Below are positions 9,937 to 50,208 of a DNA stretch of 64,000 nt, piece by piece. Source of the DNA: Acidobacteriota bacterium (GTDB lineage Bacteria > Acidobacteriota > UBA890 > WLXD01). The notes beneath the pieces were generated by a model, which was not told the origin of the DNA, did no database searches, and saw only the letters and a program-made list of their open reading frames with translations. The stretch spans positions 704,001 through 768,000 of the forward strand of contig CBDBHB010000008.1 in the NCBI GenBank assembly GCA_965205505.1, given 5' to 3'. Within the stretch, counting starts at the first letter, position 1, and the number at the start of each line of letters is the position of its first letter. A program made the translations under genes and the position numbers.

Positions 9937-10066
9937 CTAGTGTCCTGTAACAGATGATCGTTGCATATCGTGGTGGCGAAATGGGTCCGGATGCCAGGCG
10001 CGACGACGAGACGATGTTTGCCCATCTTCGAGGAGGAGCAACGCCGCAGACGGGCCGATTCCGCCG
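9937..10066 (+). repeat. Structured repeat (single module) whose terminus equals the IS110 target
   Basis: ctagtgtcctgtaacagatgatcg matches the rejoined IS flanks at 23 of 24 positions; internal gatgccaggcg...cgatg..catcttcgaggaggagcaacgccgcaga matches the module at 45433-45495. Confidence 0.8.
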
Positions 10067-45379: not shown

Positions 45380-45660
45380 CTAGCAGGCCGTGGTGAAAGT
45401 GTGGTGGGTCTGGTTACGGCGAGTTGGGGCCAGATGCAAGGCGGCCTGACGCTGGCGATGCCCTAGCCATCGTCGAGGAAGGCCAACGCCGCAGATGGCC
45501 TCAAATCACCGTAACCCTTCGGGCGATAGGGGGTTGCGCGCGTATGCTACGTCGTTCGTCGTCAACGATGGGGTAACCATCGCCTCCTCCTCTCTCCTGG
45601 CCTCCTCCTCGCAAGACCCTGTCGCCAGGCCCGCCACACTTGCACCACGGCCTGCTCTAG
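45380..45660. mobile_element. ~280-bp non-coding MITE/REPIN-like element with 32-bp terminal inverted repeats, CTAG at both ends
   Basis: 45382-45413 vs reverse complement of 45625-45656: 29/32 identical; two inverted internal stem-loop modules; lies between convergent stop codons. Confidence 0.85.
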
Positions 45661-46628
45661 GGCTCTGCGACGATCTTCCCGACAGCCCTACGATCGAGGA
45701 TATCGCGCAGCGCCTGCGGCACTTCTTCAAGCGAGCAGCGCCGCGAGATAAACGGTCGCAGCTCACCCGCCACAGCGTAGTCGTCGAGCTCACGCGACAT
45801 CGTCTGGAAGATCTCGGGCTCCTTGGTGCGCGCGGCGCCCCAGAAGACACCGATGATGGAGCTGCCCTTGAGAAGGGCGAGGTTGAGAGGAATACGCGGG
45901 ATGCCCGCCGTAAACCCGATGACCAGGAATCGGCCCCGCCATTTCGTAACCCGAAACGCAGCCTCGGCATAGTCACCGCCGACCGCGTCGAAGACCACGT
46001 CCACGCCCTCGCCGCCGGTGAGCTCCTTGACGCAGTTCTTCAGATCCTCCTGGTCATAGTTGATCGTCTCGTCGGCGCCGCGCTGACGACACAAAGCCAG
46101 CTTCTCGGGCGTGGAAGCGGCGGCGAGGACCCGGGCACCGAGCAACTTCCCCAGCTCGATCGTTGCAAGCCCCAGGCTCCCGGCGGCTCCGAGCACGAGC
46201 AGGGTCTCGCCCGGTCGCAGATCACCGCGAAACTTCAGACCATAGTAGCTGGTGCCGTACGCGTATCCGAACCCCGTCGCTTCAGCGTATTCCAGGCCTC
46301 CAGGCAAGGGCCGCAGGTCGGCCACGGGAACCGCGACGCGCTCGGCGAACCCGCCGGTGAAACCCCAACCGACGACATCATCGCCCACCGCAACCTCGTT
46401 CACGTCGGCGCCAACGGCGCTCACCACACCCGCAACCTCGGTACCTGGAATGAAGGGCGGCGCCCCCTTGAACTGGTAGCGGTTCTCGATAATCAGGGTG
46501 TAGGGGAAAGTGACCGCCACGGCACGAACGTCCACCATCACCTCGCGGGCGCCCGGGATCGGATCTTCGACGGTCTCGACCACCAGATCCTCGGGTGGAC
46601 CGAAGGCCTTGCAGACGACGGCTTTCAC
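45657..46628 (-). CDS. NADPH:quinone oxidoreductase (MDR family)
   Basis: YQFK..PPFIPGTEVAG, LVLGAAGSLG, GVDVVFDAVGG, GRFLVIGF.AG, GKIV. Confidence 0.93.
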   Translation of the reverse strand: MKAVVCKAFGPPEDLVVETVEDPIPGAREVMVDVRAVAVTFPYTLIIENRYQFKGAPPFIPGTEVAGVVSAVGADVNEVAVGDDVVGWGFTGGFAERVAVPVADLRPLPGGLEYAEATGFGYAYGTSYYGLKFRGDLRPGETLLVLGAAGSLGLATIELGKLLGARVLAAASTPEKLALCRQRGADETINYDQEDLKNCVKELTGGEGVDVVFDAVGGDYAEAAFRVTKWRGRFLVIGFTAGIPRIPLNLALLKGSSIIGVFWGAARTKEPEIFQTMSRELDDYAVAGELRPFISRRCSLEEVPQALRDILDRRAVGKIVAEP

Positions 46629-46739
46629 ATGTGTACCCTAGATGAGATGAGAAGGCCAACCTCCTGAACGCAGTAGCCTGACGGCTCTGCAAACGTTTAT
46701 GCAACGTTAACGGGGCTCGAAGCCCAAGGAGGTTGGCCG

Positions 46740-47782
46740 ATGACAAGTGTAACGATTGGACTGAACGTAAGCGACCGGTACAGCCGTATGTGCGTGCTCG
46801 ACAGTAAGGGCAGGGTGATGGAGGAAGGGCGGGTGAGGACGAGCCCGGAGGGGCTGGCGAGGCGGTTCGGGTGCGAGGAGCCCGCTCGAGTTAGTGCTGG
46901 AGTTGGAACGCACTCGCCGTGGATGAGTGAGCAGTTGAAGCAACTGGGTCATGAGGTGCTGGTGGCTAACCCGAGGCGGCTGAAGCTGATCTATGGCGAG
47001 CACGGACCGACCGGTTGGATGCCGAGCACCTGGCACGAGTGGGCAGAATGGACCCAAAGCTGCTTAAGACGGTGCAGCATCGAGGCAGACAAGCGCGAGC
47101 GGATCTAGCCGTGATTCGGAGCCGAGATGCTCTGGTAAAGAGCCGCACGCAGTTGGTGAGCCATGTGCGTGGTGCGGTCAAGTCGGCCGGTTGTCGTATT
47201 CCCAGGTGCTCGACGCCGGCGTTCGCGCGCACCGCGCCAGAGCACATACCGGAGCGGCTCAAGGGAGCGCTCGAGCCGGTGCTTGAAACGATCGCCATGC
47301 TGACGGGCAACATCCAGCAATACGAGCGTCAGATCGTGCAGCTGTGCCAGGGGCGATACCCGGAGACACAGCAGCTCCAGCAAGTGGCCGGGGTCGGAGC
47401 TCTGACCGCACTGGCGTATGTGCTGACGCTCGAGGAGCCGGAACGGTTCAATACCTCCAGAGCCGTGGGCCCGTACCTGGGACTGAGACCGAAGAAACGG
47501 CAGTCGGGGGACAAGGACCCTGCGCTACGAATAACCAAGGCGGGCGACAAAATGCTCCGACGCCTGTTGGTGGGCTCGGCGCATTACATCCTGGGCCCCT
47601 TCGGGCCCGATACTGAGCTCAGACGCTGGGGGCTCAAGCTGGCCGGACGCGGTGGTCCTCATGGCAACAAAAAGGCAGCAGTTGCTGTCGCCCGTAAGCT
47701 CGCCGTTGTGCTGCACCGACTGTGGCTGAGTGGAGACGAGTACGAACCGTTGCGCGCACCTGTAGAGGTTTCAGCAGCATGA
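46740..47782 (+). pseudogene. IS110 transposase/recombinase (DEDD RuvC-like + Transposase_20), disrupted
   Basis: TIGLNVS (expected GLD), scrambled V.LE.GTHS, VLVANP, frameshift near 47005 before TDRLDAE, GVGALTA, YLGLRP...SG, ITKAGDKMLRRLL, AVAVARKL; AAGGAGG RBS. Confidence 0.92.
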
Positions 47783-47839
47783 ACTAACCCGCAACCAGGA
47801 GGTCGGTAGGGCGACGCGACCCAACGGTTATCGATCTGA

Positions 47840-48005
47840 CCGCCCGGTCCGGGCGACTGCGAAGGTCACTACGAGCTTCGAGCTCGGCAGCTAGATTGCA
47901 GCGCCTCGAATCGGGACGGACCCCAGAATGCACCGGACGACCTGAATCCTCGTCCACCAGAGTGCGAATAGGAGCATGGCGTGCAGATCGATTCTTCGCT
48001 GGGCA
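47840..48005 (+). ncRNA. Putative bridge/seek RNA with target-binding loop at 47857-47901
   Basis: Stem ctgcga/ttgcag, 9x9 internal loop aggtcacta / gcagctaga, stem cgagct/agctcg; further hairpins cgcccg/cgggcg and ggacga/tcgtcc. Transcript ends are not known. Confidence 0.72.
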
Positions 48006-48099
48006 CCACATTGCCCTTGACCGAACTAGGCCTTCTCTTAGAAGTGGCCTGTAACAGATGATCGAGTCCGGCGAGCGGTCTGGAACCCAGTAGGCTCCG

Positions 48100-48132
48100 C
48101 CAGACCCACCACACTTTCACCACAGCCTGCTA
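48100..48132 (-). repeat. Solo terminal repeat of the 45380 element
   Basis: Reverse complement tagcaggctgtggtgaaagtgtggtgggtctgg matches 45381-45413 at 32 of 33 positions; its TAG is the stop codon of 48130..50208. Confidence 0.9.
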
Positions 48133-50208
48133 CACGAGATCCCTCGGAATCGTGTCGGCCCACTCCTTCTCGTACTGCAGCTCGCCGTTGACTCGAAGCT
48201 CACGGCGGACGCTGATCTCGAAGGCCTTGTCGTTGCTCGCGAGGGTCATCCAGGAGTTGCAGGTAATCGTCCTGCCCTCGTGCTCCACCTCGTCCCTGCC
48301 CTCGGCGACGATGGTGGCGTGGGCCGGATCCCGGTCGCTGGCGGTGGACCAGCGTCGCTCCATACTGCCGTATGCCGGCTGGATCGTCTCCCGAAACACC
48401 GTTACGGTCTGCTTCATCTCGTCGCGAGTGACCTCCCACTGGTCGATGGGTCCTGGCCCGGCTGAGCCCTGCGCTTCATCGATCTCAGGAGGCTCGTAGG
48501 GCCGCGACAGGGCGCCCGGCGGCATGACCGGCAGAACGATGCGGGAGGGGTGATCGGCGTCGACGTACAGCTTGGTCGTCATCCGATGGGGCGTGGGCCA
48601 CAGGTTGGGGAAATCGGCGTTGGCGATCGCCACGCGCACCCGATGTCCCTTGGGAAACACCCACGAGATGACCTTGAGGTTGAAGCTCAGCTCGTAGATC
48701 TCACCCGGGGTCAGCGGCTCGGGATCGACGTGCGAGTCACGATGGGCGCCGTTGATAATGCCCTTGGTCACCAAGGTAGAGGTTCCGTCGGGAGCAACAT
48801 CACACAGACGGACGATCCAGTTCGCTACTGGCGCACTGGCGGACACGTGCAGAACCGCCCGCGGAAAGCCGAGGATTTCGAAGTTGTCTTCCAATGGCGC
48901 GGTATCGAAGGTCATCGAGTAGGCGTCGTCGGCGCGCTGGTCGATCGGTAACTCGGCTGCGTTGTGCGGGCAGCGGTAGCGGTTGGTCATGCCGACGGTG
49001 GGCTTGTACTCGAGCTCCGACTCATGGTCGAGCGTCCGCTCACCTCCCAGGGCTCCCCCCGGCTGCGGATACCAGGTGACTGACTCGATGCCCTCCGGCG
49101 GCCAATCGGTTGAGCGCCACTCCCCCGGAATGCTCTCGATCTCCAGGCTGGGCTTGTACGAGTTGTTGACGTACATCGCCAGGCGCGGCTCTTCCATCAG
49201 CCCGGTATCGTTTTGCTTGAGCCAATGGTCCCACCAGCGCAGCATCTCGGGCTTGGGGTTGTACGGCGGCCCCGGCTTGCCGATGGCGTGCGTCCACTGA
49301 CCGATAATGGCGCGCGTCGGCACCGACATCCTCTCGAGCATGCGCGGGATGCTGTCGGTGTAGGCATCGATCCAGCCGCCTATCATCATCGTCGGGATCT
49401 TGATGGCGCCGTAGTCGGGGCGCAGTGACATGCGCTGCCAGAACTCGTCGTTGCGCTGATGGCGCAACATGTCGAAGACCCAGGGTTGGTGCTCTACCCG
49501 ATAGCGCGCCTCTTCGGTATCCGGGTCGTAGTCGGGCCAGGCTGGCAGTCCCATGTTGGAGATCATCGAGAACGGCCAACGGCCAAGCGACTCGAACTGT
49601 AGCGCCCCGTCGTAGTACACGATGTCGTCGGTGAACACATCGTCGGTAGCGTGCATGGGCACGATCGCCTTCAGCGCCGGCGGCTGCATCATCGCGACCT
49701 GCGTGGCGTTGAAGCCGCCGTAAGATGAGCCGAACATGCCGACGTTGCCGTTGCTCCATGCCTGGGTCGCCAACCACTCGATGACATCGAGGGCGTCTTC
49801 ACGCTCCTGAACCGAGTACTCGTTGGGCGTCGTCCAGCCGGTGCTCGTGCCAGTGCCGCGTACGTCCACCTGGGCAACCACGTAGCCGCGCTCGGCGTAG
49901 TAGCCAAAGCTGCCGAGTTGATCGGATTCGGTGCGTCGGTACGGGTCGTAGCTGAACAGAGCGGGGAAATTATCGTCCGGGCCGGCGCCATCGGGCATCA
50001 CCAGCCGAGCGGCCAGACGCACACCGTCGCGCATGGGGATGAAGGCGAGCACCGAGCGCGCCCCGAAGCGCGGTTGGCTGACCTGCTCGGTCCACCGAGC
50101 GGCGACGACTGCCTCGCCGAGAAGCTCCGAAGCGTTGGCTCGAACGCCCAGCAAGCTAGCCCCAGCGATCGAGCCAGCCTTACCGAGAAAATCCCGGCGC
50201 GTGTCCAT
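48130..50208 (-). CDS. CocE/NonD family hydrolase with Tat signal
   Basis: TRRDFL; IPMRDGVRLAA, DVRGTG, GSSYGG, GGWIDAY, GQWTH, GHRVRVAI. Confidence 0.93.
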   Translation of the reverse strand: MDTRRDFLGKAGSIAGASLLGVRANASELLGEAVVAARWTEQVSQPRFGARSVLAFIPMRDGVRLAARLVMPDGAGPDDNFPALFSYDPYRRTESDQLGSFGYYAERGYVVAQVDVRGTGTSTGWTTPNEYSVQEREDALDVIEWLATQAWSNGNVGMFGSSYGGFNATQVAMMQPPALKAIVPMHATDDVFTDDIVYYDGALQFESLGRWPFSMISNMGLPAWPDYDPDTEEARYRVEHQPWVFDMLRHQRNDEFWQRMSLRPDYGAIKIPTMMIGGWIDAYTDSIPRMLERMSVPTRAIIGQWTHAIGKPGPPYNPKPEMLRWWDHWLKQNDTGLMEEPRLAMYVNNSYKPSLEIESIPGEWRSTDWPPEGIESVTWYPQPGGALGGERTLDHESELEYKPTVGMTNRYRCPHNAAELPIDQRADDAYSMTFDTAPLEDNFEILGFPRAVLHVSASAPVANWIVRLCDVAPDGTSTLVTKGIINGAHRDSHVDPEPLTPGEIYELSFNLKVISWVFPKGHRVRVAIANADFPNLWPTPHRMTTKLYVDADHPSRIVLPVMPPGALSRPYEPPEIDEAQGSAGPGPIDQWEVTRDEMKQTVTVFRETIQPAYGSMERRWSTASDRDPAHATIVAEGRDEVEHEGRTITCNSWMTLASNDKAFEISVRRELRVNGELQYEKEWADTIPRDLV

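Follow-up and report, generated by a model that had tools for sequence, protein, structure and literature searches.

Why does a 1403-bp insertion sequence (IS), carried in a 64,000-nucleotide window of an Acidobacteriota genome (contig CBDBHB010000008.1, positions 704,001 to 768,000), lie exactly at the end of another repeat, and what directs it there? The element occupies positions 46642–48044 of the window and belongs to the IS1111 group of the IS110 family. Analyses of its copies, its target sites and its relatives make it very probable that the element is guided by a predicted seekRNA, encoded in its 3′ non-coding region, into sites of the form CTAG + TG(G/A)CCT. All features of the element described below are on the plus strand, and coordinates are those of the window unless a contig is named.

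The genome from which the window derives (G000; 5.98 Mb, nine contigs) was searched with the element by BLAST, which identified 33 matching pieces, 27 of them full length at 97.9–99.3% identity. When the flanks of the 27 full copies were aligned, after one copy with an extra ATGAG at its left end had been shifted by 5 nt, positions −3 to −1 were T, A and G in every copy and position −4 was C in 26 of them. To the right, positions +1, +2, +4, +5 and +6 were T, G, C, C and T in all 27 copies, with G (26 copies) or A (one copy) at +3. A first-pass annotation of this DNA had expected the pattern ctAG^tgNcct from such an alignment, and the TAG / TG(G/A)CCT found here agrees with it. All 27 copies had the same orientation relative to CTAG/TG(G/A)CCT.

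In the window, the left half of the target, CTAG, was at 46638–46641, and its last two bases are the AG core held in common with the element's right end. The right half (48045–48064) consisted of TGGCCT, which begins at 48045 as the first-pass annotation had placed it, and 14 further bases of an IS630-type inverted-repeat remnant. Since the AG before the element is the same as the element's last two bases, the crossover is ambiguous by two bases and there was no target duplication. A contig from sequencing run X1 joined 46639 to 48043, skipping 1403 bases, with two ambiguous letters at the junction, and is the empty form of exactly this locus. In the population sampled by that run the locus occurred both with and without the element (depths of 137.6 and 8.3, respectively, although contig depths are rough).

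The putative target-binding loop of the seekRNA (also called bridge RNA) was located at 47855–47905, where a covariance model, R1, gave its sole match in the window (65.4 bits). The outer stem, P1, pairs CTGCGA (47857–47862) with TTGCAG (47896–47901), and the inner hairpin, P2, occupies 47872–47886. Between these helices are two strands of 9 nt, AGGTCACTA on the 5′ side (47863–47871) and GCAGCTAGA on the 3′ side (47887–47895), the latter containing CTAG. The 5′ strand, read as RNA, is the candidate right target guide, AGGUCACUA, and forms eight Watson-Crick pairs and one G-U pair with TAG + TGGCCT, without a mismatch; family covariation and the purine-only occupancy opposite its U, both described below, also bear on this assignment. 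The candidate left target guide, CAGCUAG (47888–47894), reads in the sense of the left flank and core and would therefore pair with the bottom strand, and the AU directly after it corresponds to the first two bases of the element's left end. The top-strand match is thus located 5′ of the bottom-strand match, and the two overlap by TAG.

Both helices were retained when the entire 262-nt non-coding region was folded to minimum free energy (−99.3 kcal/mol, z −2.28, 5 of 200 shuffles as good). The first-pass annotation had described this stem, 9 × 9 internal loop and stem-loop, the complementarity to the target with its single G-U pair, and the CUAG of the opposite strand matching the left flank, and its coordinates and pairings were all correct. 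It had also noted the downstream position of the RNA, as in IS1111 types, and the non-coding region downstream of the transposase gene (47783–48044) was indeed much longer than the 98 nt upstream (46642–46739). The guide loop was identical in all 27 copies, with no variable column between 47789 and 47909.

The sites in this one genome were informative about the pairing rules. There were 204 free CTAGTGNCCT sites, at which N was G in 109, T in 87, C in six and A in two. Opposite the guide U, the occupied sites had G in 26 cases and A in one, never T or C (Fisher 3.3e-7 versus the free sites, although this and the other p-values given here are optimistic because occupied and free sites share repeat ancestry and are not independent). 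None of the 93 free CTAGTG(T/C)CCT sites had been occupied. The restriction to purines was as predicted, since U pairs with A by Watson-Crick geometry and with G by wobble. An unoccupied end of the same repeat family within the window, at 9937–9960, differed from the joined flanks of the element at one of 24 positions, the 23/24 identity that had been reported earlier; the difference is a T for G at the third base after CTAG, so this end carries TGTCCT and its T faces the guide U, with which it cannot pair.

Matches to the left guide outside CTAG were also unevenly distributed. The dinucleotide AG at −6 and −5, as in the guide, was present at 5 of 27 occupied sites versus 0 of 111 free sites (p 2e-4), and matches to the guide at −7 to −5 were more numerous at occupied sites (Mann-Whitney p 7.6e-4). 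The first-pass annotation had noted a match of only 4 nt of the left guide and assigned specificity mostly to the right guide. Left flanks beyond CTAG did look unrelated, but the enrichment at −6 and −5 indicates that the left guide is not restricted to 4 nt. Together, the 27 hits and 204 free look-alike sites constitute a natural experiment in a single genome, with single-base discrimination opposite the guide U and a graded contribution of the outer left-guide bases to site choice.

Relatives of the element provided the decisive test of the guides. The element was found in none of four genomes of the same genus, and matches at E ≤ 1e-30 were found in 5 of 40 other genomes; a contig search identified one relative, at 43%. 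A genome of the same order (G011) had a single copy that was 62–68% identical to the window element. Its ends aligned base for base with those of the window element, and its flanks and both loop strands differed; the G011 loop strands fit their own flanks at 9 of 9 and at 7 positions, respectively. The G011 copy (C1:3908161-3911885; L039, L033) was split by an insertion of approximately 2.7 kb inside the transposase gene.

A protein search found thousands of relatives, with 7996 of 8000 scored candidates at E ≤ 1e-40, among them proteins of 92% identity (P0003–P0005), and one protein of 65% identity was labelled Gemmatimonadales by its source. An alignment of 60 relatives was used to retrieve 80 metagenome loci, of which 40 were kept, those in which a script found both ends through the conserved subterminal repeat; with the window element and G011 these gave 42 elements. 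All 42 ended in ..CAT-NNN-AG or a close variant, and 37 had AG before the left end, which indicated that the core is constant. Guides at fixed positions were compared with flanks in the 38 elements that had recognisable frame motifs (4 of the 42 were dropped). The five variable bases of the left guide matched their own left flank at 4.26 of 5 positions on average versus 1.18 for the flanks of other elements, and for the right-guide region the longest Watson-Crick run with the element's right flank averaged 5.76 versus 3.19 for the right flanks of others. After collapse to 27 target clusters, neither the left-guide nor the right-guide value was reached in any of 5000 permutations. The loop strands therefore followed the flanks over 27 different targets among transposases of 50–70% identity, and the covariation of loop and target that the first-pass annotation had looked for among homologs is present both in G011 and across these clusters. 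Eleven relatives from different samples (L064, L066, L069, L070, L073, L078, L079, L081, L083, L088, and L096) had a near-identical site, TTCTCSGA-AG-TTCGC, which is probably another conserved repeat or gene motif.

The structure of the loop was also conserved. A strict regular expression for the loop matched only 4 of the 80 loci and was abandoned, and a MAFFT alignment of the whole non-coding regions was too gappy for use. RNAalifold on the 40-sequence alignment A4 found only one stem, P3 (below), because the hairpins differ in length, and the covariance model R1 was built instead, from six sequences. Of the 87 sources searched, 59 had exactly one R1 match each, and every match was downstream of the transposase. 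In the resulting alignment four outer-stem pairs of P1 never varied and the base of P2 covaried, one P2 pair reading GC in 37 sequences, AU in 16, GU in two and CG in one. The covariation score was 0.173 versus 0.079 ± 0.007 for shuffled alignments (0 of 500 as high) and was well above all slid controls, although the alignment had been fitted to the model, which somewhat favours the structure.

The first-pass annotation had been unable to identify a donor-binding loop. Candidates for donor-side guides, which would recognise the element's own ends, have now been found downstream of the target-binding loop. The left end (46642–46657) consists of a terminal extension, ATGAG (46642–46646), followed by the subterminal inverted repeat ATGAGAAGGCC (46647–46657). 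The right end (48029–48044) consists of the subterminal inverted repeat GGCCTTCTCTT (48029–48039) followed by the terminal AGAAG (48040–48044), with the core AG last. This inverted repeat measures 11 bp in the 21 copies with A at 48038 but 9 bp in the window copy; IS1111-group elements have subterminal inverted repeats of 7–17 bp with short terminal extensions. There is thus a 5-nt extension outside the repeat at both ends, and the repeat adjoins both ends in the 40 metagenome relatives and in G011 as well.

The stronger donor-side candidate, which we propose as the left donor guide, is a 7-mer, AUAGGAG (47968–47974), located one base after the stem P3; its sense is that of the final 7 nt of the right end. 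In 41 of the 42 elements this 7-mer and its counterpart at the right end were identical, the sole exception being the window element. The right terminus occurred in six variants, of which the ATAGAAG variant alone required at least four changes on the transposase tree, and three singletons (L063, L111, and L126) had their own terminus variant in both the 7-mer and the right end. By its sense, the 7-mer would correspond to the left donor guide in the portion of Durrant et al. available to us (PMC11208160). The weaker candidate, a possible right donor guide, is a 5-mer at 47922–47926, upstream of P3 with two bases in between and complementary to the left end's first 5 nt. Across 38 elements it matched at 151 of 190 positions versus 127.2 ± 3.7 when permuted, a value reached in 0 of 10,000 permutations; L088 and L096, which have a 2-nt insertion, were omitted from this test, and L120 and L126 were absent from the alignment. 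An initial test of the right donor guide, in which the wrong motif had been anchored in many rows (60/205 versus 63.4 permuted), was counted invalid and redone on aligned columns.

The stem between the two candidates, P3 (47929–47933 with 47962–47966), together with its hairpin P4 (47936–47955), spans 47929–47966. Its five pairs were retained in 39–40 of 40 sequences, two of them with compensatory changes. Guides that flank a stem fit a remark by Durrant et al. [quoted passage not shown] A helix of GCGCC with GGCGU that would close the donor region from outside was considered and rejected, as the changes on its two sides disagreed in most rows.

The right flanks are members of a repeat family that numbers about a hundred. 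Ends of the TAGTG.CCT type numbered 309 in the genome, and 36 inverted pairs of them were found, of which 11 were 276–277 bp apart, a spacing that marks a miniature inverted-repeat transposable element (MITE). IS630 elements duplicate a TA target, which here would lie within CTAG. An IS630-family element of 1183 bp with TAGTGTCCTGAGTCAG-type ends was present at C9:2198454-2199636 (L142), and its 381-aa open reading frame (ORF) scored 272.9 bits against the IS630 model NF033545 (cut-off 100). Of the 27 insertions, 23 were at IS630-type or MITE ends, and the other four had only the 10-bp site in common; the repeat at the window site is a 20-nt remnant after the element. The earlier description of the target as a CTAG-bounded family resembling MITEs or repetitive extragenic palindromes (REPs) was correct. 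A further 111 free ends carried the programmed 10-mer without the element.

The IS630 element L142 is apparently intact, and its inverted repeats carry TGTCCT. The ends of this autonomous element appear to escape the IS1111-type element, in view of the 0 of 93 free sites with T or C that were occupied, whereas many TGGCCT MITE ends have been hit. Perfect short palindromes of two back-to-back repeat ends (CAGGCCA-CTAG-TGGCCTG), and tandem ends, were also observed (C9:129739, C9:1339279, and C8:620181); back-to-back ends offer a target site on both strands simultaneously.

Based on these data, we propose that the 3′ non-coding region encodes a seekRNA in which the invariant outer stem and the covarying inner hairpin would hold two single strands open as target guides. 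Further downstream, two more single strands flanking P3 would serve the donor side, the 7-mer for the right end and the weaker 5-mer for the left end. Going by published work on the family, the DEDD/serine recombinase and the RNA would excise the element as a circle, and the circle would insert at the core AG without target duplication. In this genome IS630-type transposons and their MITEs have the programmed 10-bp site as their outer terminus, which provides more than a hundred places to land.

Several observations weigh against this proposal. At the window site the left guide agrees at only 4 of 7 positions, a poorer fit than that of the relatives' guides. The donor 5-mer pairs at only 3 of 5 positions in the window element, and the donor 7-mer of this element reads ATAGGAG, as against right ends of ATAGAAG (21 copies) or TTAGAAG (six copies, including that in the window), that is, one difference in the element and two in the window copy. 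The other 40 of the 80 metagenome loci had been dropped for too little flank or because no ATGAG-type inverted repeat was found in them. Rfam matched no family in the region 46000–48600 at E up to 1. IS1111-type seekRNAs are processed to 70–100 nt and bind the transposase; here contigs from RNA libraries (X16, X17) covered the element, yet such contigs cannot rule out DNA carry-over or show the ends of an RNA. No circle junction (back-joint) was found in contigs of X1, X3, X16 or X17, in which a junction would seldom be expected to show. The shared ancestry of occupied and free sites noted above belongs with these points.

These points have to be set beside three other explanations of the locus. 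The transposase protein alone might read CTAG/TGGCCT, with the complementary loop a coincidence or serving another role. The exact matches are short, the G-U pair breaks the 9-mer, the left guide shows the incomplete fit described above, and the RNA itself is a prediction, all of which such an explanation would accommodate. We nevertheless consider it highly improbable, since the loop strands tracked the flanks over 27 targets while the transposases remained 50–70% identical, the G011 loop strands and flanks had altered together (9 of 9 and 7 positions), and the purine-only rule opposite the guide U fits RNA pairing. In addition, Siddiquee et al. describe the RNA of other IS1111 members as essential and reprogrammable in the part of their report consulted (PMC11187229). 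An equally slight chance attaches to the suggestion that imprecise excision left old flanking DNA in the loop as passive copies, so that its strands would not be working guides. The 3′ strand does read like a copied junction, in that its sense is that of the left flank followed by the left end's first two bases. The other strand, however, is the reverse complement of the right flank, and in 59 sources an internal loop at a constant position, bounded by an unvarying stem and a covarying hairpin, contains both strands. Flanks that had been captured would not preserve this arrangement, or be accompanied in 41 of 42 elements by a donor 7-mer that matches.

The least probable explanation, in our estimation, is a composite unit in which the neighbouring repeat travels with the element; the shared right flank would then be part of the element rather than a chosen target. 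The right flank is similar in 23 of the 27 copies, and many of the BLAST matches extend 20 nt beyond the end of the element, as a composite unit would predict. However, at least three repeat variants were represented among the right flanks and four sites had only TG(G/A)CCT in common. The 111 free ends have the same 10-mer with no element beside them, the empty-site contig lacked exactly 1403 bases and kept the repeat remnant, and relatives ended at the same GAAG terminus beside unrelated flanks.

Within the preferred reading, that of an RNA-guided element, we also considered whether the guide code of this lineage is less strict and less balanced than that of the four-guide IS621 model, a speculation that we regard as possible but rather doubtful. 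The right target guide may carry most of the specificity and accept an rU-dG wobble at nearly every natural site, and the left target guide may need only CT and the core, its further matches merely biasing site choice. Among the donor guides, strict conservation may apply to the left one alone (7 nt; 41/42), the right donor arm probably being read weakly by the RNA and mainly by the protein through the long subterminal repeat. If this speculation is correct, such slack in the guides would explain the colonisation of the termini of several IS630/MITE variants and the 27 copies.

The coding part of the element also placed it in its family. An intact 348-aa transposase frame was present in 10 of the 27 full copies. 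The intact protein, P0001, matched PF01548 (64.3 bits) and PF02371 (62.4 bits), which represent the DEDD RuvC-like N-terminal domain and the C-terminal domain, and scored 202.8 bits against NCBIfam NF033542 'IS110 family RNA-guided transposase' (cut-off 140). Its residues 249–258, GLRPKKRQSG, have the GLxPxxxxSG pattern of the IS1111 group, and among 60 transposase relatives G249 and L250 were invariant and P252 and G258 nearly so. Together with the inverted repeats and the long downstream non-coding region, these matches bear out the IS110/IS1111-type assignment made in the first-pass annotation. The closest solved structures in a PDB sequence search were ISCro4 and IS621, both distant (E 9e-8 for IS621).

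In the window copy the transposase gene is a pseudogene (46740–47782) in two open pieces, 46740–47108 and 47015–47782, disrupted by a 4-nt deletion after 47004 and by a local indel pair at 46890–46901, and its Pfam matches are fragments only. The deletion was common to 12 of the 27 copies, this one included, and five others lacked one base at 47145. With its broken transposase and its intact ends and guide loop, the window copy would depend for any movement on transposase made by one of the 10 intact copies. The polymorphic sites among the 27 copies occurred in mosaic combinations in the haplotype table, with the frameshifts at 47004 and 47145 recurring in 12 and five copies, which suggests that broken copies spread through transposase supplied by other copies, or that gene conversion took place between copies, or both. 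On contig C6, copies 11749 and 189959 had an identical right flank and different left flanks, and copies 423092 and 512430 an identical left flank and different right flanks; this one-sided sharing may point to copies that rearranged with each other or to flanking repeats that were duplicated.

The element is situated between two minus-strand genes and is upstream of the ORF at 45657–46628, 11 nt from its start. Near its right end the motif TTGAC(C), at 48017–48022 in the window copy, was conserved 20–22 nt from the end in 40 of the 42 elements. We tentatively suggest that it is the −35 box of a promoter completed only when the ends are joined; no convincing −10 box for such a junction promoter was found, the best candidates matching at 3 of 6 positions.

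The clade to which the element belongs is large and environmentally abundant, with a constant AG core, constant ends and at least 27 natural target programmes. It therefore offers material for the study or engineering of IS1111-type recombinases, of which a PDB sequence search found no solved structure. At this locus one transposon preys on the termini of another family. An IS1111-type element has reportedly been seen to home into the terminal inverted repeat of another transposon; the prey described here differs from that precedent in being an IS630-type family with its MITEs, at over a hundred sites in one chromosome. Literature searches found no paper on an IS1111-type element targeting IS630 ends or MITEs, which is weak evidence of absence.

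The architecture itself has been described, in the sections available of Siddiquee et al. (2024), for ISEc11, ISPa11, ISKpn4, and ISPst6 (PMC11187229). The same sections report that IS1111 seekRNAs come from a long non-coding region downstream of the gene, with the top-strand match 5′ of the bottom-strand match, and that IS1111 transposases have 330–350 aa and a GL-P----S(T)G motif. Like those four elements, the window element has a DEDD transposase of 330–350 aa with GLxPxxxxS/TG, subterminal inverted repeats, a downstream non-coding region, and a top-strand match 5′ of a bottom-strand match with overlap at the insertion point. Like ISPa11, which uses REPs, it has repeats as targets. The natural retargeting that separates the window element from G011 is of the same kind as that of ISXne4, as presented in that part of the report (PMC11187229). 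Unlike those elements, it belongs to a different, uncharacterised lineage (possibly already named); its target is the terminus of IS630-type transposons and MITEs, a G-U pair is used at 26 of 27 insertions, and the left guide needs only CT plus the core.

With regard to RNA-encoded donor recognition, Durrant et al. (2024) predict a right-end bridge RNA for 93% of IS1111 elements, and the published accounts represented there refer, for IS1111 donor guides, only to 'potential donor-binding nucleotides', located in a multi-loop (PMC11208160). A 2026 review, in the portion at hand, still assigns end recognition in these elements to the transposase (PMC13604230). The conserved 7-mer and 5-mer provide sequence-level evidence for donor guides in IS1111-type RNAs as well. 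As in the IS621 bridge RNA described in the available part of Durrant et al. (PMC11208160; structures 8wt6 and others), there would be guides for both strands of target and donor, and the four guide roles of IS621 (left and right, target and donor) can be mapped onto the window element. Unlike in IS621, the RNA comes from the opposite (right) end, the 5′ side of the loop carries the right guide so that the guide order is reversed, the donor guides flank a stem rather than forming the two strands of a simple internal loop, and the proteins are only distantly alike. The window element would work like IS621, yet is not a member of the IS110 group with an IS621-like bridge RNA. Its mechanism is one published in 2024, to which wobble tolerance, guide asymmetry and donor guides are added here as detail.

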